From NCBI GenBank assembly GCA_963737655.1, contig CAVTTN010000002.1:2528001-2592000 (forward strand): DNA of 64,000 bases, read 5' to 3'. This DNA comes from an uncultured Planctomycetota bacterium. Its GTDB lineage: Bacteria > Planctomycetota > Planctomycetia > Isosphaerales > Isosphaeraceae. Both the position numbers and the translations under genes were made by a program. This document shows positions 44,350 through 63,860 of the stretch, one piece after another. Each line of letters starts with the position of its first letter. Position 1 is the stretch's first letter. The notes below the pieces were generated by a model. The model was not told the DNA's origin. It saw nothing but the letters and a program-made list of their open reading frames with translations, and did no database searches.

Positions 44350-45810
44350 TCACTTCTGGGGCGAGGCCGAGGCGGCCGGGGCCTCCGTCGTGGCCTGAGG
44401 CGTGGCCTGGGCCGAGGCCGCCGTCTGGGCCGAATAGACCACCGGCACCATCATGCAGGTCGTGACCGGGACCTGCTTGCTCACGTAGCGGGTCTGGCAC
44501 GTCATGACCGTCACCGGCACCTGCTCGGGGACGGTGACCGGCACCTGGCGGGTGTAGGTCTCGTTGACCTGGCGGGCCTGGGGGACCATCACCGTGACCT
44601 GGAACTGCTCGGGGACGGTGACCGGCACCTGGCGGGTGTAGGTCTCGTTGACCTGGCGGGCCTGGGGGACCATCACCGTGACCTGGAACTGCTCGGGGAC
44701 GGTGACCGGCACCTGGCGGGTGTAGGTCTCGTTGACCTGGCGGGCCTGGGGGACCATCACCGTGACCTGGAACTGCTCGGGGACGGTGACCGGCACCTGG
44801 CGGGTCAGGGTCTCGGCGACCATCCGGGTCTGGACGGTCGCGACCATGTGCGTCTGCTGCTGGGGGACCATCTTCATCGTGGTCACCGGGACGTTCTCGA
44901 CCATCTGCTGGGGGACGTTCACCATCGTCTGGACCGGGACCTGACGGGTCTGCATCGTCGGGACGTACTGGGTCTCGGTCACGTTGCGGACCACCTGCTG
45001 AGGCGTCGGGGCCGACTGGGCGCTGGCCGCCGCCTGGCCGCTCGCGGTGGTCCCGGCCGCCGAGTTCACCCACTCGGCAACCTGACGGGTCACCGAGACC
45101 GGCTGATTGACCATGTACGTCTCGTTCACGTACGACGTCTGCGGGACCTGCCGGCAGACCGTGTAGGCCCTCTGCTGATAGGTCGTCTCGGGGACCGGCA
45201 CCATCACCGTGGTCGTCTGAGGGACCTGGACCGTCTCGTAAACCGGCCGATTGACGACGTAGTTCTCGCTGCGGAACTCGGTCCGGTAGCGGGTCTGGGT
45301 CTGGGTCGTCGGCACCTGCTCGACCACGGTGCGAGTCACCGGCACCTGCTCGGTGCGGAACTCGGTCCGATAGCGGGTCTGGGTCTGGGTCGTCGGTACG
45401 TTCTCGACGACCGTCCTCGTCACCGGCACCTGCTCGGTGCGGAACTCGGTCCGATAGCGGGTCTGGGTCTGGGTCGTCGGCACCTGCTCGACCACGGTGC
45501 GAGTCACCGGCACCTGCTCGGTGCGATATTCGGTCCGGTAGCGGGTCTGCATCTGAGTGACCGGGACCTGCTCGACGACCGCCTCGGTGACCGTCTGATA
45601 GGTCGTCTGGTACTGCGGGACCATCGTGACCATCGACCCGCAGTAGGAACCGACAGACCCGCACGCCGAGGCATAGGCGACGGCCGGCCCGGTCCCGGCG
45701 CAGAGGCTCATCCCCTTGCCGCACTTGTGACACGCCAGCGCCTCGCCACTCAGGGCCAGCAAGGCCAAGGGCGACGCCAGCCACATGCTCCTCTTCATCC
45801 CGATTCTCAT
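44350..45810 (-). CDS. Secreted V/T/Q/P-rich repeat protein (planctomycete YTV-type envelope protein)
   Basis: Signal peptide, Cys-rich N-terminus, YTVC motif, two blocks of 28-aa (84-bp) repeats. Confidence 0.85.
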   Translation of the reverse strand: MRIGMKRSMWLASPLALLALSGEALACHKCGKGMSLCAGTGPAVAYASACGSVGSYCGSMVTMVPQYQTTYQTVTEAVVEQVPVTQMQTRYRTEYRTEQVPVTRTVVEQVPTTQTQTRYRTEFRTEQVPVTRTVVENVPTTQTQTRYRTEFRTEQVPVTRTVVEQVPTTQTQTRYRTEFRSENYVVNRPVYETVQVPQTTTVMVPVPETTYQQRAYTVCRQVPQTSYVNETYMVNQPVSVTRQVAEWVNSAAGTTASGQAAASAQSAPTPQQVVRNVTETQYVPTMQTRQVPVQTMVNVPQQMVENVPVTTMKMVPQQQTHMVATVQTRMVAETLTRQVPVTVPEQFQVTVMVPQARQVNETYTRQVPVTVPEQFQVTVMVPQARQVNETYTRQVPVTVPEQFQVTVMVPQARQVNETYTRQVPVTVPEQVPVTVMTCQTRYVSKQVPVTTCMMVPVVYSAQTAASAQATPQATTEAPAASASPQK

Positions 45811-46836: not shown

Positions 46837-48470
46837 TCAGGAGCCGAGCCAGCCCGGCATCTCGCCGGCCTCGGGCAGCTTGATCAGGCTGACGCTGAGG
46901 ATGTCGGGGTGGGCCTGGACCTCGGCGAGGGCCTCGTCGGACGGGACCACGTCGAGGTTCACCACGCCGATCGCCTCGCCCCCCGGCTGCTTCCGACCCA
47001 CGTTCATCTGGGCGATGTTCACCCCGTGGCGGCCGAACGTGGTGCCGATGAACCCGATCAGGCCGGGGCGGTCGTAGTGGGTGAAGACCAGGATCGGCCC
47101 GTCCATGTGGGCGTCCAGCCGGTACGGGCCGATCTGCACGAGCCTCACGAACTGCTTGCCGAACAGCGTGCCCGAGGCCAGGTACGCCTTCTTCTCGGTC
47201 ACGACCTCGGACTGGATCATCGTGCCGAAGTCGCCGGTGTCGGTCGATTTCTCCTCGACCAGGGCGATCCCGCGATCCTTCAGCAGGGATTCGGCATTGA
47301 CGAGGTTGACCTGCCCTTCCAGGGCCGCCTCCATCCAGCCGGCGGCGAAGCTCGCGGTGATCAGCCGGGTATTCTTCCCGGCCACTTCGCCCCGATACCG
47401 CAAGGTGGCCTGGCGGACGGTCCCGCGGTCCATCTGGGCGTGGAGCATCCCGAGCCGACGGCCCAGGTCGAGGTAGAGCTTCAGGTCCTCGAGCTCGGCC
47501 CCGCTGAGCGACGGCATGTTCACGGCGAACCGGACCTGCCCCCGGCCGAGGAAGTCGATCAGGAGGCGAGCGGCCTCGACGGCCACCGCCACCTGGGCCT
47601 CCTCGGTCGAGGCGCCGAGGTGAGGCGTGACGATCACTCCGGGGTGCTTGATCAGAGGATGGTCGGCCGGAGGCGGCTCGGGGTCGAACACGTCGATGGC
47701 GGCGCCGGCGACCTTCCCGGCGTTCAGGGCGTCGAGCAGGGCGGCCTCGTCGATCAGCCCGCCTCGGGCGCAGTTGATGATCCGCACCCCGGGCTTCATC
47801 TTCGCCAGGGCCGCCGCGTCGATCAGGTTCCGCGTCTCGGCCGAAAGCGGTGTGTGCAGGGTGAAATAATCGCAACGGGGCCAGAGGTCATCGACGCCCG
47901 GGACGCTCTCGATGCCGAGCTCCTGCGCCCTCTCGGCCGAGAGGAAGGGGTCGAAGCCGACGACCTTCATCTCGAACCCCCGGGCCTCTGCGCCACGGCC
48001 AGGCCGACCCGTCCCAGCCCGATGATCCCCAGCGTCTTGCCTTCGAGCTGCGTCCCGGTGAACTTCGACCGCTCCCACTTGCCGGCCTTCAGGCTGTCAT
48101 TGGCCCTGGGGATGTTCCGCGAGAGGGCCAGGATCATCCCCACGGTGTGCTCGGCCGTGGAGACCGTGTTGCCCCCGGGCGTATTCATGACCACGATCCC
48201 CTGGCGGGTCGCCGAGGGGACGTCGATGTTGTCCACGCCCACCCCGGCGCGGACGATCGCCTTCAGGCGCGTCTGGCCGTCGAGGATCTCGGGCGTCAGG
48301 GTGGTCCCCGAGCGGATCACGATCCCATCGGCCTCGGCCAGGGCGGCGCGGAGGGCCGGGATGTCCCCGGCGAGCTTCGGGTTGACGACCACTTCGATCG
48401 ACGGCTCGGCCCGGAGCAGCTCCAGGCCCTCTTCGGAGAGCTTATCCGTCACCAGCACGCGATGAGGCAC
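46837..48470 (-). CDS. serA: D-3-phosphoglycerate dehydrogenase; frameshift near 47985
   Basis: RAGVGVDNID, GLGRVG, INCARGG, TPHLGASTEEAQ, ASB and ACT domains (DRPGLIG); GTG start with a GAGGAG RBS. Confidence 0.93.
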
Positions 48471-48530
48471 GGTCCGAAACTCCTCGACCAACAGCACGAC
48501 TCGACGGGCACGACCCCATCTCCGAGACGG

Positions 48531-49930: not shown

Positions 49931-50614
49931 CTGTCCCCCTTCGTCGAACGACCGGATCGGCCGGGCGTGAGGTCGGCCCGTTGGCGAGGGTATCGCCGCC
50001 GAAGCCGGGCGACAATCGGCGGCGGGTCGCGAGGGTGCGAATGCCTCCGATGGGTGGGCGAGGAGGCCGATGCATCGGGTCCGCGACCGGTCCGGAAATC
50101 GGTTGAAGTCGGACCCCTGAGGGTGCCGATGATTGATCTGGTGCGATCCGCCGACTCCGGTTAAAAGAGGCCCACCGCGAGTGGACGTGATGCCTTTCGA
50201 CGTTCGAGTCGTCCTGGCCAAGAGGGCCGGGTGGTCGAGGACTCAGGAGGCGTCCGAACTTGCGGGTCCGCCCGATCGGGGGACGTGCCATGACGGTGCG
50301 TTCGCCTCGGGCGGGCGGCATCCTTTCATGATGAAGGGATGTTCGGCCCTCGATCCGAGGCCGGTCCAGGGAAGGGCCGGGGCGTCTTGCCCCCGGCGAG
50401 ATGCTCTCCTCGCACCCGCCTCCTCCTTTCGCCTGACCCCGCCCCCGACTCGCTCGGGAGCGGTCCGGTCCGCGGTCTCGCCCGCCTGGGGCGGGGCTTC
50501 CCGGAAGACCTCCTCGGCTCGAACGGCCCCCCGGCGTCCCTCGACGCCGCCCGCCTTCCCTCGGCCTCGACCGGGGGACGTCGGCTCGCCCTCGGGGAAA
50601 GGAGTCCTCCCGGC

Positions 50615-52186
50615 ATGACGACCGCCACGCTCTTCCTCGCCCTGATCGCCTCGCCGGCCGCCAACGCGCCCGAGGCCCCGGTGATCCTGGACTTCACCGC
50701 GAGCTGGTGCGGCCCCTGCCAGCAGATGAAGCCGGCCGTCGAGCTCCTGAAGAAGAACGGATACCCCGTCCGGGCCGTCGATTACGACTCGTCGAAGGCC
50801 CTCGTCCAGAAATACCGGATCACCGGCGTCCCCACCTTCGTCGTCGTCGATGCCGACGGCCGGGAGCTCGGCCGGCTCGACGGCTTCCGCCCGGCGAAGG
50901 ACATCGCCGACCTCTACCGCTCCGCCAACGCCCGGGTCAGGGCCGCGGCGAAGGACGACGGAGGCGACGACGACGTCGACCCCGACGCCGCCACCCCGCC
51001 CGGAGCCGCCCCGGTCCGCGCCGAGACCCCTTCGGAAGAGGATTCCTCCGGCCGCCGGCCTTATCCGTGGGAAACCACGGTCCGCATCAAGATCGATAAC
51101 CCGTACAGCCGCCCGGCCTCCGTCGAGTTCGGCTCGGGGACCGTGATTTACAGCTCCCCGGAAGAGACGATCATCCTCACCTGCGCCCACATCTTCCGGG
51201 TCGGCAAGGGCTCGGCGCAGCCCCGTCCCGACAAGTTCAACCTGCCGATCGAGGTCCAGCTCTTCGACGGCATCCTCCACGGCACCGAGCCGGCGAGGGT
51301 CCACTACAAGGGCGAGTCGTACCGCGGCCAGGCGATCGATTACGACTTCGTCGGCGACGTGGGGCTGATCCGCATCCGGCCCGGCAAGAGGCTGAAGGTC
51401 TCGCCCGTCGTGCCCGCGGACTGGGTCCCCCGCGAGAAGACGAGGATGACGACCGTGGGTTCCTCGGCCGGTCGCGACGCCACCGCCTGGACGACCTGGA
51501 TCACCAAAACGCGAGTCTCCGGCCTCGTCGAATACCCCAACTACGAAGCCACCGAGTGCGCCTATGCCCCGATCCCGGGACGCTCGGGAGGCGGCCTCTA
51601 CACGATCGACGGCATGGTCGCCGGGGTCTGCGACTTCGCCGAGCCGACCGGCGGACACGGCCTGTACGCCTCGCCCCGGACCATCCATAAACTGCTCGAC
51701 CGCAACAAGCTGACGGTCTGCTACGCGCCCGACTCGGCCCGGCCGAGGGAAGGGTCGGGGTCCGGGACCCTGGTGGCCCAACAGAGTCGCGGATCGGCGA
51801 CGAAGCTCCGGGCGCAGTCCGGCCCGGACATGACGCCGAAGCCCAAGAAGTTGACGATCCCCAGCCCCGAGCAACTCAACGTCCCCCCCCTGAGCGATAC
51901 GGACCGAATGGCGCGCTCTCCCCGGAGGCCCTCGCCGTGGTCGGCCGGAGGGACGGCGGTCGCGGCGACGAACGCCCGGGTCAAGCAGGTCGCCATCCCG
52001 AGGGAAGCCGACGACGAGGACGACCGGCCGATGGCCACCGACATGACCATGCTCCCCTCGATCGACACCGAGGCCATCTCCGCCCTCCCCGAAGCCGCGC
52101 CGGCCGTCGTCGAGAAGCCCGAAGCCGCCACGAAGCCCACCGCCCCCGGGACCCCGCGCAGCCCGAAGGTCTGGAAAGCCAAGTAG
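50615..52186 (+). CDS. Thioredoxin + trypsin-like serine protease fusion
   Basis: Signal-like N-terminus; WCGPC; TCAH / GDVG / GRSGGG; disordered C-terminal tail. Confidence 0.85.
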   Translation: MTTATLFLALIASPAANAPEAPVILDFTASWCGPCQQMKPAVELLKKNGYPVRAVDYDSSKALVQKYRITGVPTFVVVDADGRELGRLDGFRPAKDIADLYRSANARVRAAAKDDGGDDDVDPDAATPPGAAPVRAETPSEEDSSGRRPYPWETTVRIKIDNPYSRPASVEFGSGTVIYSSPEETIILTCAHIFRVGKGSAQPRPDKFNLPIEVQLFDGILHGTEPARVHYKGESYRGQAIDYDFVGDVGLIRIRPGKRLKVSPVVPADWVPREKTRMTTVGSSAGRDATAWTTWITKTRVSGLVEYPNYEATECAYAPIPGRSGGGLYTIDGMVAGVCDFAEPTGGHGLYASPRTIHKLLDRNKLTVCYAPDSARPREGSGSGTLVAQQSRGSATKLRAQSGPDMTPKPKKLTIPSPEQLNVPPLSDTDRMARSPRRPSPWSAGGTAVAATNARVKQVAIPREADDEDDRPMATDMTMLPSIDTEAISALPEAAPAVVEKPEAATKPTAPGTPRSPKVWKAK

Positions 52187-52323
52187 GGTGCATGAAATGC
52201 ACCAACAAGGCGGCGGCCGAAGGCCGCCCCCCGATCGCTCCTCGTGACGTGTCCATCGGACGGGAAACGAGGCGGTAAGCGGCCTCCGGCCGCTGCGGGT
52301 TTGGTGCATTGCATGCACCCTAC
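52183..52323. repeat. GTAG REPIN between convergent genes
   Basis: gtagggtgcatgaaatgcacc ... ggtgcattgcatgcaccctac; both flanking genes end on its TAG. Confidence 0.88.
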
Positions 52324-54557
52324 AGGATTTCCATCCCGAAACCGCGCAGGGCTTCTCGGAGCGGCTCGATCTGGCCATCGGGGACGACCACGGCGGTCGG
52401 TCCCAGGCGGTCTCCCAGCTTGTCCCTGGTGGCCGGGTGCTGGAGGAGGCCGTCGAGCAGGTCGGCCGCGGGGAGGTTCAGGACGATCGGCCGGGTCACC
52501 GTCAAGGGAGACGACCCCGGCCCGACCGCGTGCCACAGCAGCCGGACCGCCGGTGGGACCTCGCCGCCGACCCTCTGCGCGAACCATTTGGTCAGGCTCG
52601 CCGCCGAGACTCCATCCTCGGCCGCCCGGCGGAGCGATCGCGTGGTGATCCGGAACCGCCTCCGACCGGCCGGGCTCGGCGAGTCGCGATCGTCGCCCAG
52701 CTCGTCGGCGATCCTGGCGATTTCGGCGTCGATGAACAGGTCGGAGCGGCCGAGGTCCAGCGACAGGGTCACGCCGTCGGGATCGACCTCCACGCACGCC
52801 TCGGGCGGTCGGCGATAGTCGCGGGACCCCGCCAGGCGGAACCTCGCGAACGGGATCGTCGATTCGTCCTCGACCAGCAGGAGCCGATCGGACAGGGGGA
52901 CCGGCCGGCTTCCTTCGGGCCAGAGCGCGAGCGCCTCGGCCATCACTTCGGGCGAGGCGAACTCGACCAGGGTGGCCGCCCCGTGATAGGTGATCCGGTC
53001 CCGCCGGTTCGACCAGGTCTTCACCGCCTCGGCCACGCCCGCCGGCAACGGCCGGGCCGAGTGCTTCGCCAGGCGGTCGAGCATCGCGTCGGGGGACATC
53101 CCGCCTTCGAGCCCTCGATAGACCGACTCGGGCGTGAGCTTCATCTCCAGGGCCGCCCCGGCCTGCGACCACCTCATGAACCGGCTCAACTGGCCGATCA
53201 GCCCCGGATTGAGGCCCTGGCGATAGGCGATGACCTCGAAGTTCGGCTGGACGAACAGGAAGTGCGGGAACGTCGTCCGGGGCGGCGGCGGCGGGCCGAG
53301 CGCGAGCGAATAGCGGCCGAGCTCGGTCAACTGCACGACCCTCCGGCCGCTCGGGTCTTCCTCGGCGGCCCGGACCAGGCCGATCTGATACGCCGGTCCG
53401 AGCAAGATCGCTTCGAGGAGGTCCATCCCGCCCAGGGGGCCGGGCGAATCGGCCTCGCCGCCCCGCTTGCGAGCGAAATGGCCTCGGCCCGACGGCTCCG
53501 CCCCACCCAGGATCGGCGCCGACCATCCGGGGAACGTCTCGTCGAGCAAGGCGGCAAGATCGTCGAGCGCCACCCACTCGCCGGCCGGTTTCCTCGCGAG
53601 CCAGAGGAACACGGCGGGCCGGAGGAACGGCCCGGCGAGGCCCACCGGCGAATCCTCGCTCCTGGATCCGCCCTGCTCGCTCCACGACCTCATCCCGAGC
53701 CATCGCGCGGCGGCCATTTGCGGCAGATGCACCGCGTTCTCGGACCAGAAATCGGCCGGGGCGGCGGAGGTCCGATCGGATTGCGAGTCGTCGATCACCA
53801 GGCCCACGCCCCGGGCCAGGGAGAGCCACAGGCCGGCCATGTCGGGCAGCGGTTCGAGGGCGTCGGCGATCGGCCCGACGAGGACCGGGTCATCCTCGAT
53901 CCGCTCGCGGTCTCGTTTGTAGAGCGAGCCGGTTTGCGTCCTCCGCAACGGCGCCTCGTCGACGATCTGCCAGAGGGCGGCGAGGCGGAGGATGAATTCC
54001 AGGCCGTCGGTCTCGCGGACCTGGCGGGTCGGGCCGCTCGCAGGCGGCCCCTCGGCCTCGGGCAAGACCGTCCGGCCCACGCTGAGGATCGCCGGGGGGG
54101 CGACGAGGTCGCAGCCCGGAGGGTCGAGCAGGCGTTCCGGGTCGCTCGGCGGGGGGCCGTCCCCCAAACGTCGGGGCACGAGCAATCCCAGGGGCAGCAA
54201 TTCGCTCGCGACCGGGACGAACGGCTCGCCCAGCGAGGCCAGGGCGAAGGCGAGTCCCGAGGCGGGCCAGATCGAGTTCTCGGTCAAGGCCATCAGGCCC
54301 AGGGCGATCCGAGACCCGCGTCCCAGACGCTCCCAGAGCCCTTCGACGAACCGCGTCTCGCCCAGCCGATCGACGATCGCCGGCGCCAGCTCCGTGGGCT
54401 TCAGGGAGCGATCGTACGGGCCGAGCGTCCGCAGGACGTCGGTCCGATAGGCGGCCGGCTGGCGGGAGAGCGCCTCGCGGTACGCCTCGCTCGGGGCCTC
54501 CTGGCGAGGGGGCATCCCCTCGACGTCGATCGTGGTCATGGTCTCGGGGTCGGTCAT
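52320..54557 (-). CDS. XPB partner with helicase-associated (Helicase_C_3 / p52-Tfb2-like) domains
   Basis: VQPNFEVIAY...LTPESVYRGLEGGMS...LPAGVAEAVKTW..RRDR, plus a second degenerate copy (RFRITTRSLRRAAEDGVS); no Walker motifs seen. Confidence 0.82.
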   Translation of the reverse strand: MTDPETMTTIDVEGMPPRQEAPSEAYREALSRQPAAYRTDVLRTLGPYDRSLKPTELAPAIVDRLGETRFVEGLWERLGRGSRIALGLMALTENSIWPASGLAFALASLGEPFVPVASELLPLGLLVPRRLGDGPPPSDPERLLDPPGCDLVAPPAILSVGRTVLPEAEGPPASGPTRQVRETDGLEFILRLAALWQIVDEAPLRRTQTGSLYKRDRERIEDDPVLVGPIADALEPLPDMAGLWLSLARGVGLVIDDSQSDRTSAAPADFWSENAVHLPQMAAARWLGMRSWSEQGGSRSEDSPVGLAGPFLRPAVFLWLARKPAGEWVALDDLAALLDETFPGWSAPILGGAEPSGRGHFARKRGGEADSPGPLGGMDLLEAILLGPAYQIGLVRAAEEDPSGRRVVQLTELGRYSLALGPPPPPRTTFPHFLFVQPNFEVIAYRQGLNPGLIGQLSRFMRWSQAGAALEMKLTPESVYRGLEGGMSPDAMLDRLAKHSARPLPAGVAEAVKTWSNRRDRITYHGAATLVEFASPEVMAEALALWPEGSRPVPLSDRLLLVEDESTIPFARFRLAGSRDYRRPPEACVEVDPDGVTLSLDLGRSDLFIDAEIARIADELGDDRDSPSPAGRRRFRITTRSLRRAAEDGVSAASLTKWFAQRVGGEVPPAVRLLWHAVGPGSSPLTVTRPIVLNLPAADLLDGLLQHPATRDKLGDRLGPTAVVVPDGQIEPLREALRGFGMEIL

Positions 54558-54778
54558 CGGACGATCCGGGGGGTATGGCCCATCCGCCTCAGCTCATCGA
54601 GCACGGCATCTTCCTCCTCGGGCCGGACGAGCAACACCGTCTCCGACAACCGCCCGGCAATCAACCTCGCCAGGGTCTTCCTCGCGAGTAATTCCTCGGC
54701 CAAGATCGGCTCGGAGGTGCGGATCAGGCTGACCTGGCGATGAAGCTTCACGGGAATCCGGGCAAGCGGTCCAGCCAT
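54554..54778 (-). CDS. 74-aa stand-alone p8/Tfb5-like module protein
   Basis: ATGA overlap with the downstream gene; resembles the C-terminal module of the 745-aa protein and the segment after the XPB N-terminal domain. Confidence 0.75.
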   Translation of the reverse strand: MAGPLARIPVKLHRQVSLIRTSEPILAEELLARKTLARLIAGRLSETVLLVRPEEEDAVLDELRRMGHTPRIVR

Positions 54779-54790
54779 CGACAGTTCCCC

Positions 54791-54811
54791 GTAGGGTGCA
54801 TGAAATGCACC
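54791..54811. repeat. Single GTAG REP
   Basis: gtagggtgcatgaaatgcacc, identical to the copies at 41766 and 52183. Confidence 0.85.
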
Positions 54812-54812
54812 A

Positions 54813-55337
54813 TCATGTAGGGCGGGTGGAACCCGCCGAAGCTTCCGAATCCCGGTCCGAAGACCCGAGTGCTCGCTCCCGTCGCGAGGTCCACAGCCCC
54901 AGCAAGCCACCCATGACCCCAGCAGGCAACGTGCTAGACATGAGGAACAAGGACCTGATGCGCTCGTTTCTGTTCCAAAAAGTGTACAGCTCGGGCGGCG
55001 TTAGTCCGCTTTTTTTCGCCTCATCCTGTAGCCGGTCCATGACATCTTCGGAGATTGCAATACTCGGGAGGAGGACATTCGGTCGATCAGTCATGTTCTC
55101 CACAATGCACATATGGTATGCCCAGCCGAACGCTGCAAATCCGAACCAGAACGCCCGGCGACTAGTCTTTCCAAATCGAGCCGCGAACGTTGCGAACAGG
55201 AGTATGACAATAACTCCCAACGCGGTTAACCGTCTCAGCGGTTCGCTTGTCGCAAGAGCCGGCCACATCATCACCGCTGTTACGGCGATGACGATCATCA
55301 GCCCGCCAATCGTGATGCGCCCTCGCCGCCCCGTCAC
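54813..55337 (-). CDS. Lower-GC membrane protein inserted in the XPB operon
   Basis: RITIGGLM...RRAFWFGF motifs shared with 5191-5811; GTGA overlap with the XPB stop (alternative start 55346); visibly more A/T-rich. Confidence 0.7.
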   Translation of the reverse strand: MTGRRGRITIGGLMIVIAVTAVMMWPALATSEPLRRLTALGVIVILLFATFAARFGKTSRRAFWFGFAAFGWAYHMCIVENMTDRPNVLLPSIAISEDVMDRLQDEAKKSGLTPPELYTFWNRNERIRSLFLMSSTLPAGVMGGLLGLWTSRRERALGSSDRDSEASAGSTRPT

Positions 55338-57061
55338 GACGCGCACGCCCCGGGCGAGCCTGCCGGCGCCTCGGCTGCCGACACGTCCGCCTCGTCCACG
55401 ATCTCGTAGCTGTAGCCCTGCTCGGTGAGGAACAACTGGCGGTGGTGGGCGAAGTCCATCTCCCTCGTGTCGCGGGTCACGAGCGTGTAAAAATGCGCCG
55501 GCTCGGCGCCGTCCTTCGGCCTCAGGATTCGCCCGAGCCGCTGGGCCTCTTCCTGACGGCTGCCGAAGGTGCCCGAGACCTGAATCATGACGTTCGCGTC
55601 GGGCAGGTCGATGGCGAAATTGCCGACCTTCGACAGCACCAACCGGCGGATCTCGCCCCTGCGGAACTTCCCGTACAAATCCTCGCGCTCGGGGTTCGAG
55701 GTCTGGCCGGTGATCAGCGGAAGCTCGTAACGCTCGGCGATCCGTCGCAGTTGCTTCAAATACTGGCCGATGATCAACACGCGATCATCGGGGCCGTCGT
55801 GCCTGGCCAATAGCGTGTCGATCAGGTCTTCCTTGGCGGGGTTCTCGCTGGCCAGCCGGAACTTGTCGCGCCACTCGGCCACGGCGTATTCCATCCGGGC
55901 GTCGTGAGGCAACGCCAGGCGGACCTCCCGGCAGAGGGCCTGCGCGATCCAGCCTTTTTGTTCGAGGACCCGCCAGGGCACGTCGAACTTCTTCGGGCCG
56001 ATCAGGCTGAAGACGTCCTCCTCGCGGCCGTCCTCGCGGACGAGCGTCGCCGTGAGCCCGAGGCGCCGACGGGCCTGGATGTCGGCCGTGACCCGGAAGA
56101 CCGGCGCGGGCAACAGGTGGACCTCGTCGTAGACGATCAGGCCCCAATCGCGCTCGTTGAACAGCTTGAAATGGGGGAAGTCGCCGTCCTTCTTGGGCCG
56201 GAAGGTGACGATTTGATAGGTGGCGATCGTGACCGGGGCGATCTCCTTCGAGTCGCCGGTGTACGTGGCCACCTGGTCGTCGCTCAGGTCGGTCTTGTCC
56301 AGGACCTCGCGCTTCCACTGCTCCACGGCGGTGGTGCTGGTGGTCAGGATCAGGGTATGGCGCTTCAGGGCGGCCATCGCGGCGATGCCGACGATCGTCT
56401 TGCCGGCCCCGCAGGGCAGGACGATCACGCCCGAGCCTCCGCGGACGTCCCCCCCGGCGTGGAACGCATCGACCGACATCTTCTGATAGTCGCGGACCCG
56501 GAACGGATGGCCCGATCGAGCGATCTCGACCAGGTCGAGCTGGAGGGGGGAGCCGTCGGTGTAGCCGGCGAGGTCCTCGGCCGGGTAGCCGACGGCGATC
56601 AGGGCTTGCTTGACGAGTCCCCGGTCGCCGTCGTCGATCCGATAGCTCGTGTCGTCGATCCGGTCGTACAGGTAGTTCTTGAGGGCCTTCTGGCGGGCGA
56701 GCTCCTCGATCAGGGGGCGGTCCTTCGTCATCAGGACGAGGTTTTCCCCCTGGCGGACGAGGCGGACCCGGCCGTACCGGCCGACGAGCTCGCGGAGATC
56801 GACGGGCAGATTCGGGGGCAGGGGGAACTTGCTGAAGGTCTCCAGGACCTGGACCATCGCCTCGGCGGTCATCCCGGCGGCGGCGGCGTTCCAGAGCGAG
56901 AGCGGCGTGAGCCGATAGGTATGGATATGCTCGGGGCTTTTTTCCAGCTCGGCGAACGGGGCGAGGGCGTCGCGGGCCTCGGGATAGAGCGGATTCTCGA
57001 CCTCCAGCAGCACCGTGCGGTCCCCCTGCACGATGAGCGGGTTGGCGGGGTTGTACTGCAT
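55334..57061 (-). CDS. xpb: XPB/Ssl2/ERCC3-like SF2 DNA helicase
   Basis: N-terminal PLIVQGDRTVLLE..ELEKSPEHIHTYRLTPLSLWNA, LPCGAGKT, DEVH, GLTATLVREDG (RED motif), QRLGRILR; AAGGAG RBS. Confidence 0.95.
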   Translation of the reverse strand: MQYNPANPLIVQGDRTVLLEVENPLYPEARDALAPFAELEKSPEHIHTYRLTPLSLWNAAAAGMTAEAMVQVLETFSKFPLPPNLPVDLRELVGRYGRVRLVRQGENLVLMTKDRPLIEELARQKALKNYLYDRIDDTSYRIDDGDRGLVKQALIAVGYPAEDLAGYTDGSPLQLDLVEIARSGHPFRVRDYQKMSVDAFHAGGDVRGGSGVIVLPCGAGKTIVGIAAMAALKRHTLILTTSTTAVEQWKREVLDKTDLSDDQVATYTGDSKEIAPVTIATYQIVTFRPKKDGDFPHFKLFNERDWGLIVYDEVHLLPAPVFRVTADIQARRRLGLTATLVREDGREEDVFSLIGPKKFDVPWRVLEQKGWIAQALCREVRLALPHDARMEYAVAEWRDKFRLASENPAKEDLIDTLLARHDGPDDRVLIIGQYLKQLRRIAERYELPLITGQTSNPEREDLYGKFRRGEIRRLVLSKVGNFAIDLPDANVMIQVSGTFGSRQEEAQRLGRILRPKDGAEPAHFYTLVTRDTREMDFAHHRQLFLTEQGYSYEIVDEADVSAAEAPAGSPGACAS

Positions 57062-62564: not shown

Positions 62565-62673
62565 CTGGACGTAAAATCGGCCGAGTGCTCCACTTAGCTC
62601 ACCCGTCTGGACGGACGGAGCGGCCCGGAAAACCCCCAGAAAGCCGGTGGTCTACCGGTTTGGAGGTCGATCC

Positions 62674-63860
62674 GTGCCCACTCTCCGCCTGCGGACCCCG
62701 AATTACCGCCTCCACAAGCCCAGCGGCCAGGCCGTCGTCACCTTGGACGGCCACGATTTCTACCTCGGCCGGCACGGCTCGCCCGAGGGCCGTGCGGAGT
62801 ACAACGCCTGGTCGCCGAGTGGCTGGCCTCGGGCCGGCGGCTGCGGCCGTCCGGCCCCGACCCCGCGTCCGCCGGCCCGACCGTCGGCGAAGTGCTGCTC
62901 GCCTACCTTCGACATGCCGAGTCGTACTACGTCAAGAACGGGAAGGCGACTCGCGAGACGACCAACATCCAGCTGGCCCTGCGGCCGGTCCGCCGGCTGT
63001 ACGGGCACACGCCGGCCCGCGACTTCGGCCCGCTGGCCCTCAAGGCGGTCCGCCAGGACATGATCGACTCGGGCCTGTGCCGCAACGAGGTCAATAAGCG
63101 GGTCGGCAAGGTCGTCCGCGCCTTCAAGTGGGCCGTCGGCGAGGAGCTGGTCCCCCCCAGCGTCCACCACGGCCTCCAGGCCGTCTCGGGGCTGAGGCGG
63201 GGCCGGGCCGACGTCCGCGAGTCCGAGCCGGTCCGCCCGGTCCCCGAGGCGTTCGTCGACGCGATCCGCTCCCACGTCGCCCGCCAGGTCTGGGCGATGG
63301 TCGAGCTCCAGCGGCTGACCGGGATGAGGCCCGGCGAGGTCGTCCTGGTGCGGGGCCGCGACCTCGACACCTCGGGCCGGGTCTGGACGTATCGGCCCGG
63401 CTCGCACAAGACCGAGCACCACGGCCGCGAGCGGGTCATCTGCCTCGGCCCGAAGGCCCAGGCCGTGCTGCGGCCGTGGCTTCGGCCGGCCCCGGAGGGA
63501 CCCCTCTTCAGCCCGGCCGAGGCGGTGGCGGAGCGGAACGCGGAGAAGCGGCGGCTCCGCAAGGCCCCGCTGACGCCCTCGCAGCGGGCCCGGGCCCGGC
63601 GTCGCTCCCCGCGGAAGGCCCCCGGGGACGCCTACACGGCGGACTCGTACCGCCGGGCGATCGCCTACGGGTGCAAATGGGCCGGGGTGCCGAGGTGGCA
63701 CCCGAACCGGCTCCGGCACAACGCCGCGACGGCGATCCGCTCGCGGTTCGGGCTGGAGGCCGCCCAGCTGGTCCTGGGCCACGCCAAGGCGGACGTGACC
63801 CAGGTCTACGCCGAGCGGGACCTCGCCCGGGCCGTCGCGGTCATGGCCGAATTCGGCTGA
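62674..63860 (+). mobile_element. Tyrosine recombinase/phage-type integrase next to the tRNA; frameshift near 62805
   Basis: N-terminal YRLHKPSGQAVV; catalytic TGMRPGE, HKT, HPNRLRH, LGH, TQVY. Confidence 0.9.

Follow-up and report, generated by a model that had tools for sequence, protein, structure and literature searches.

A planctomycete xpb locus with likely relatives of p52 and p8, a probable bacterial counterpart of the XPB lobe of TFIIH

Human TFIIH, which acts in repair and transcription, holds XPB and switches it on through its subunits p52 and p8. As two papers describe (PMC6422496, PMC7708078), the clutch of p52 joins the N-terminal domain of XPB and, together with p8 and the DRD, encircles the RecA domains in a ring; this ring increases ATPase activity and restricts its DNA-stimulated rate. 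Bacterial XPB has so far been without a known partner or role: a 2012 study stated that no p52 homologues had been found in bacteria and reported the lone bacterial XPB to be weakly active, and a 2026 review, in the part available, describes its function as elusive (PMC13024598). The literature searched, mostly without subscription journals or supplements, held no description of bacterial p52 or p8 relatives. Here we analysed a 64,000-nucleotide stretch (the window) of an uncultured bacterium of the Isosphaeraceae (Planctomycetota; GCA_963737655.1, contig CAVTTN010000002.1, positions 2,528,001 to 2,592,000). Three co-oriented genes on its minus strand encode XPB (55334-57061, 575 aa), a small protein (54554-54778, 74 aa) and a big protein (52320-54557, 745 aa). 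A preliminary description had proposed these as XPB, p8/Tfb5-like and p52/Tfb2-like proteins; its coordinates, lengths and quoted motifs were all confirmed, and the ATGA overlap joining the small and big genes is real. What we observed are homology of each protein to a subunit of the lobe, a conserved gene order and joint loss; by analogy with TFIIH, the three conserved genes probably encode a bacterial counterpart of its XPB-p52-p8 lobe, with the two partners in the role of XPB activators.

The 745-aa protein is a member of PF13625 (Helicase_C_3), which it matches in two stretches (73.4 bits, cut-off 34.2). Searched as single sequences against the PDB sequences, neither it nor the 74-aa protein returned anything relevant. 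A family profile of the window protein and 111 of 150 listed relatives, fragments excluded, placed human p52 and yeast Tfb2 at the top of the PDB sequences (E 0.0016-0.003). Foldseek comparison of the structure model (predicted local distance difference test score, pLDDT, 91.9; predicted template modelling score, pTM, 0.78) returned p52/Tfb2 chains at all of ranks 1-19, with a best E of 9.2e-10, and XPB chains next. Only three of the 48,161 representatives in the VIA comparison scored Z 8 or more: the XPB N-terminal domain on residues 430-521 (Z 13.6, root-mean-square deviation (rmsd) 1.5, 92 aligned), p52 on residues 84-576 (Z 13.0, rmsd 11.6, 271 aligned) and the p52 N-terminal half, 6tru_B 15-319, on residues 93-421 (Z 8.4, rmsd 5.3, 169 aligned). 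Generic winged helices scored Z 5.5-7.4. The structural match is colinear along the entire chain, one example being residues 39-577 on human p52 18-459.

Three parts can be told apart in the chain. Residues 1-425 (53283-54557) hold helical and winged-helix domains that match the p52 N-terminal half, with a basic T-x6-K-[R/K] motif at 207-215 in which K214 is kept in 97/103 sequences and R or K at 215 in 103/103. Module 1 (residues 430-578; 52824-53270) is a p52-type clutch followed by a C-terminal dimerisation domain (ctd1) with a W-x3-R-x-R motif. Module 2 (residues 586-745; 52323-52802) consists of a second clutch, corresponding to the second PF13625 stretch, and a second p8-fold domain (ctd2), whose residues 685-741 superpose on Tfb5 (3dom_B) with Z 6.2 and rmsd 2.4 over 56 aligned positions. 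We conclude that the 745-aa protein is almost certainly a full-length p52/Tfb2 homologue over residues 1-577, and that residues 586-745 are an extra clutch and p8-fold module absent from eukaryotic p52. The p52 likeness first noticed by eye is borne out by profile, Foldseek and VIA, and it reaches beyond the clutch to the whole chain, including the winged-helix half. The chain carries a Helicase_C_3 module twice rather than once, which the preliminary description had missed.

Module 1 carries the closest relationship to p52. Its profile contained 38 sequences, the window protein and 37 of 55 candidates after close ones were dropped, all of them two-module partners. It retrieved p52/Tfb2 from three species (E 1.7e-8 to 3.9e-8) and XPB with E 3e-4. 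The alignments of the whole-protein family profile and of this module-1 profile run on directly after the clutch into the p8-binding C-terminal region, through p52 343-446 and 323-454; the ctd1 profile alone gave no p52 match. The module-1 clutch itself superposes on the human XPB N-terminal domain with Z 15.1 and rmsd 1.4 over 90 aligned residues. The Pfam model Tfb2 (PF03849), which was built on eukaryotic sequences, matched 15 of the 38 module-1 sequences below its cut-off, and one relative (L114) passes it with 37.1 bits against 34.5; Tfb2_C matched 4/38, with a best E of 0.036.

Residues of the eukaryotic interface were then located in the bacterial partner. According to passages of PMC9557730, p52 R400 touches p8 D13, and p52 needs E310 (yeast E342) in order to bind XPB. 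In the profile alignment, R400 corresponds to R521 (R in 108/112 sequences) and W394 to W515 (111/112), and Tfb5 D13 aligns with column 22 of the small family, one column off a position that is D or E in 76/76. Judged by the extent of the yeast match to the module-1 profile, Tfb2 E342 falls on Q437, a Q in 112/112, provided that the first alignment columns are ungapped. Bacterial XPB likewise has an invariant Q, Q12, at the corresponding place.

The 74-aa protein is a single free-standing small alpha/beta domain with 2110 relatives at E <=0.01. A family profile of 76 sequences retrieved yeast Tfb5 in the top five PDB rows (E 3.7e-4 to 6.3e-4, 52 columns ungapped). As controls, we used profiles of the three homologous domains ctd1, ctd2 and the DRD-like domain of XPB (51, 65 and 60 sequences), and none of the three gave a Tfb5 match, so the Tfb5 likeness appears specific to the free small gene. 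The structure model (pLDDT 83.7) placed Tfb5 at Foldseek ranks 1-3, but with E of only 0.036-0.054. The window protein itself belongs to no Pfam family and does not reach the Tfb5 (PF06331) cut-off; across the 76 family members, Pfam Tfb5 matched nine (best E 0.006) and DUF2336 eleven (best E 6e-5, a better Pfam score than that of Tfb5). The profile makes the 74-aa protein very likely a p8/Tfb5 homologue, on weaker evidence than in the p52 case. The earlier suggestion of a p8 likeness is thus supported by the sequence profile and its negative controls, to which the fold adds little.

The third protein scores 871.6 bits with the XPB family model NF045503 (cut-off 610) and 383 bits with the Rad25 model TIGR00603 (cut-off 328.7), and by sequence it belongs to the ERCC3/Ssl2/Rad25 type. 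A clutch-fold N-terminal domain (residues ~5-95; PF13625 matches 9-135 at E 7e-41) and a DRD-like p8-fold domain (96-162) precede two RecA domains, and Walker A (K221), DEVH (312-315) and RED (342-344) are invariant in 60/60 aligned relatives. Its closest solved relatives are yeast XPB (E 2e-90, 307 bits) and human XPB (7e-89, 302 bits); archaeal XPB aligned in the helicase part alone (E 6e-46, 160 bits). The window XPB is therefore far nearer to the eukaryotic enzymes than to the solved archaeal ones, which bears on the origin of TFIIH.

To see how widely the association holds, we examined gene content and order. The small gene is present in 108/121 genomes of the order and in 43/47 of the high-quality ones. 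Five of the 13 genomes without it were checked (93-99% complete), and these also lack any PF13625 domain. Among 80 genome loci, 63 had 3 kb on both sides, and 54 of these 63 planctomycete loci keep the order xpb, small, big; for L161 and L164, which are among the nine exceptions, the miss was caused by the filter, as xpb abuts there. In a sample of the phylum, PF13625 occurs in 146/301 genomes, 136 of the 146 with two or more matches by our own count of the table, and in 0/16 genomes of other families of the same class. Outside the phylum, Deinococcus aquaticus has the same three-gene order with a small protein that matches at E 5e-18; a search with the Deinococcus protein found 7 close relatives only. 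Records from Gloeocapsopsis, Actinomyces, Arthrobacter and Paenibacillus pair xpb with a clutch-bearing partner, and atlas clusters give Chloroflexota and Myxococcota as further leads. At least five phyla retain the linkage to xpb, and the genes disappear jointly. Co-conservation of the neighbourhood, a check named in the preliminary description, is thus seen in the order kept at 54/63 loci and in Deinococcus, and in the co-loss in five relatives. The small and big proteins matched no PADLOC defence model, and XPB matched only other helicases. Several Isosphaerales genomes also hold a second, divergent pair of small and two-module genes (L100-L109) as well as further PF13625 proteins.

A further 45, more distant loci were chosen on the strength of a match to the small gene, PF13625 or XPB; the choice is non-random, and kin among the loci are not independent. 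A free small gene occurs in 25 of them, alongside a two-module partner in 20, a broken partner in one, a partner cut by the contig end in one and no partner in the stretch in three; none of the 25 has a one-module partner. In the other 20 loci the partner is of the one-module type and a free small gene is missing at the locus, and for 15 of these 20 a whole-genome profile search, with 19 candidates scored per genome, found none elsewhere. The second clutch is weak in two loci (L212, L220). A profile of 15 one-module partners matched XPB at E 4e-8 and p52 at E 4e-3, and their C-terminal domain aligned with ctd2 at 97.8%, with the small protein at 97.7% and with ctd1 at 61.9%. Because module 1 of the two-module type prefers p52/Tfb2 and one-module partners prefer XPB, the partner form with a free p8 is, by these profiles, the bacterial form nearest to p52-p8. 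In six one-module loci from two families (L207, L200, L201, L204, L206, L216), uvrA lies directly upstream of xpb, and in one (L207:58-4670) uvrA, above the model cut-off, overlaps xpb by ATGA. Five partners (L211:4768-6894, L212:5076-6920, L220:8099-10516, L222:2568-5111, L223:7721-9694) end in an extra domain that is WYL-like by eye and has no Pfam match. Two genes after the Paenibacillus partner, YlbG (DUF2129; L223:10330-10593) looked p8-like by eye, and we rejected it since none of the profiles built here matched it.

The same small domain appears four times in the system, as the small protein, ctd1, ctd2 and the DRD-like domain of XPB. In hhalign comparisons the small protein matched ctd1 at 93.2%, ctd2 at 96.5% and the DRD-like domain of XPB at 95.4%; clutch 1 matched clutch 2 at 97.2%, and ctd2 the XPB DRD at 96.6%. 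Strong matches of the ctd2 profile to designed repeat barrels were rejected as artefacts. In the search with one-module partners, the clutch and C-terminal domain of a partner align straight through the human XPB N-terminal and DRD-like domains, which suggests that this region of XPB was duplicated to give the C-terminal half of p52 as well as p8. A common fold of the p52 clutch and XPB N-terminal domain has been published (PMC6422496); the same statement for the DRD was not encountered in the passages of that paper. Such a history could in principle account for the whole locus, as old tandem duplicates of the XPB N-terminus linked by descent, with a p52 and p8 likeness that reflects only a common module and with no complex. 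We regard this as highly improbable. In its favour, every module is a homologue of the N-terminal domains of XPB itself, and one-module partners are closer to XPB than to p52; however, the first 425 residues find a match in p52 and none in XPB, module 1 favours p52 over XPB by four orders of magnitude, and the genes show linkage across phyla with joint loss.

The alternative that we prefer, that XPB and the p52-like and p8-like proteins form a physical complex, is likely by analogy with TFIIH. On the pattern of the eukaryotic structures, clutch 1 and the N-terminal domain of XPB would make a pseudo-symmetric dimer, and the small protein would pair with the dimerisation domain that follows clutch 1 in the big protein, like p8 with p52. 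The resulting ring would brace the second RecA domain and tune the ATPase. Domains of the p8 fold pair through their N-terminal strand, and p8 is able to self-pair. In the models of the single chains, ctd1 (518-528), ctd2 (679-690) and the small protein (1-16) each have their N-terminal strand left as unpaired coil, which would fit strands that wait for a partner. A lone p8-fold domain could then self-pair and the diverged ctd1 would need the small protein; strand pairing of this kind would explain why the free small gene is found only with two-module partners. A complex prediction of XPB 1-560, big 428-745 and small 5-74, with the small protein as partner, gave 0.78/0.78/0.79. Partner-replaced controls (n=2) gave 0.00 and an XPB-replaced control 0.74; the chains are not separable by this design, and the score could be lifted by likeness to solved p52-p8. 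Mean-field direct-coupling analysis of 94 small/big pairs (effective number 72) recovered no within-domain contact pattern, hence we consider its output noise.

Module 2 has no eukaryotic model to follow. It may self-pair, or else take up another XPB or another small protein, and so build a larger assembly. A different possibility is that it mimics the XPB N-terminus and folds back on clutch 1, so that the big and small proteins are a closed unit that binds XPB conditionally or inhibits it. Module 2 does resemble XPB 42-158 (26% identity over 117 columns, E 4e-5), ctd2 resembles the DRD as given above, the pTM of 0.78 indicates domains placed with some confidence, and small and big pairs without a linked xpb exist. 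Yet the genomes with such unlinked pairs keep a full xpb operon in 5/5 cases checked, and one-module partners, which lack module 2, remain coupled to xpb. We therefore consider a self-contained, XPB-mimicking unit improbable, and an XPB-bound complex the better account.

What the complex would do is less certain. The winged-helix half, without a p34 or p62 to bind, may hold DNA and act as the anchor of the motor, a bacteria-specific role that in eukaryotes is given by the rest of TFIIH; the basic motif with K214 and R/K215 may provide this anchor. The complex would most likely serve to open duplex DNA locally, or to track along it, when damage is repaired together with UvrABC, which we place at about even chances against some other DNA transaction. 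Alternatively, the complex may form with the big protein serving mainly to bind DNA as a targeting or regulatory factor. Winged helices would then bring XPB to certain sites, promoters or stalled polymerase for example, and the small protein would do no more than cap and stabilise an exposed strand, in gene regulation rather than repair. Over half of the big protein is winged-helix-like, the terminal domain of some relatives is WYL-like by eye (with no Pfam hit), XPB has a transcription role in eukaryotes, and no recurrent nuclease or repair gene lies beside the three-gene operon at Isosphaerales or Gemmatales loci. The winged-helix half nevertheless matches best the N-terminal half of p52 itself, which is a scaffold there, and uvrA is coupled with xpb in six related loci. 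On this evidence a regulatory role is unlikely.

Several observations weigh against a TFIIH-like XPB activator. The domain-to-domain geometry of the big protein is unlike that of p52, and the whole-chain rmsd is 11-19 Å because the domains are placed differently. The window proteins miss Pfam Tfb2, Tfb2_C and Tfb5, none of which matched anywhere in the genome. The p8 fold is generic: Tfb5 took sixth place in VIA, with Z 5.9 and rmsd 2.6 over 56 aligned residues, level with small alpha/beta domains to which it is unrelated. Since the E310/E342 position is Q437 in the partner, the charge pair is apparently not kept, though the site appears invariant. Unlinked small and big pairs exist (L100-L109), even if the five such genomes checked also carry the full operon. 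The uvrA link is seen only with the one-module type, and the uvrA-like genes of this genome lie elsewhere. Module 2 could sit on clutch 1 in cis. Finally, eukaryotic XPB/p52/p34/p8, even with XPA, had no measurable translocase activity without the remaining core, according to passages of PMC7708078.

The locus also carries elements outside the conserved system. The preliminary description had taken the three genes as a single operon; they are co-oriented, but not contiguous here, as xpb is separated from the small gene by a 177-aa open reading frame (54813-55346, minus strand) and by a REP-like palindromic repeat (54788-54815) that sits immediately upstream of the latter gene. The 177-aa frame has two hydrophobic stretches, overlaps the xpb stop by 13 nt, has a GC content of 57.9% against 69% for the window and matched no family model above cut-off. 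It is a local insertion outside the conserved system, since among all loci fetched it matched only this genome's own; four weak paralogue matches lie elsewhere in the genome. The repeat, which is AT-richer, has further copies at 52183 and 52302, and its 22-mer occurs in the genome with 142 exact matches and 360 with two mismatches. Two inverted copies pair in a hairpin (52183-52323; 45-nt arms 52183-52227 and 52279-52323, 84% complementary) between the converging big gene and a thioredoxin-protease gene. The hairpin folds at -99.3 kcal/mol (z -10, 0/200 shuffles as stable) and likely marks the end of the transcript as a terminator. A sigma-70-like promoter was not detected. Longer starts for xpb (842 aa) and the small gene (118 aa) were rejected, because relatives start at the positions used here.

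Elsewhere in the window, the gene that converges on the operon (50339-52186) encodes a thioredoxin domain fused to a trypsin-like peptidase domain. A 486-aa protein with a likely signal peptide and Thr/Val/Gln/Pro-rich tandem repeats is encoded at 44350-45810. A phosphoglycerate-dehydrogenase-like gene, assigned by eye (46837-48497), runs in two frames with a break near 48080, a frameshift or an assembly error; similar breaks are seen in many related assemblies. An integrase-like gene, also by eye (62647-63860), is apparently split across two frames.

How, then, does the locus compare with described systems? The bacterial XPB of Mycobacterium tuberculosis and Kineococcus (PMC3353954) belongs to the same family, NF045503, and in the Actinomyces and Arthrobacter records the neighbour of XPB is also a clutch-bearing protein. 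The preliminary description had named mycobacterial Rv0861c/Rv0862c as an example of XPB with a Helicase_C_3 neighbour. The missing activators of bacterial XPB appear to be encoded beside xpb. In archaea, an operon-encoded partner, Bax1, modulates the XPB ATPase, according to part of a review (PMC13024598). Bax1, however, is a nuclease that binds HD2/ThM, whereas no nuclease family was detected in the window partners, and solved archaeal XPBs match the window XPB in the helicase part only. In Pfam, the 745-aa protein is filed under Helicase_C_3 (PF13625) as a 'helicase-associated domain-containing protein', and the small protein under no family; the fold so labelled is that of the XPB N-terminal/clutch domain, for which Helicase_C_3 is a misnomer that says nothing about function.

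The nearest system is the XPB-p52-p8 lobe of TFIIH (human ERCC3/GTF2H4/GTF2H5; yeast Ssl2/Tfb2/Tfb5). The label 'mini-TFIIH' given to the locus earlier is an overstatement. Models for p44, p34 and p62 (Ssl1, Tfb4, BSD) matched nothing in the 88% complete genome, nor did any control genome pass a cut-off; the one DEAD_2 (XPD/DinG-like) match lies ~1.3 Mb from the operon on the same contig, and no XPD-like gene recurs in the flanks of operon loci. Unlike the eukaryotic lobe, the bacterial partner has 745 aa with a second clutch and p8-fold module, its genes lie in an operon, and it apparently has Q at the p52 E310 position. Alike are an XPB that begins with a clutch-fold domain and a DRD-like one, a partner that arranges winged helices, clutch and dimerisation domain as p52 does and keeps W394 and R400 equivalents, and a free protein that resembles p8 in size and profile. 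The TFIIH lobe may even go back to a bacterial operon of this kind, made up of xpb, a free p8 and a p52 with two modules, the second of which was lost afterwards, with the p52 C-terminal half and p8 arising from a duplicated XPB clutch/DRD; the three proteins would then be an ancestral, self-sufficient DNA-opening motor to which XPD, p44, p34 and p62 were added later. We put this forward as a tentative idea that is somewhat less probable than not, and Rad25-like genes in Asgard archaea, mentioned in part of PMC9258230, bear on the same question. In conclusion, the partner and role of bacterial XPB become directly testable with three small soluble proteins, which also offer a minimal model of the interface struck by human XPB and p8 disease mutations; module 1 with a free p8, as the bacterial form that appears closest to p52-p8, bears on how TFIIH arose.

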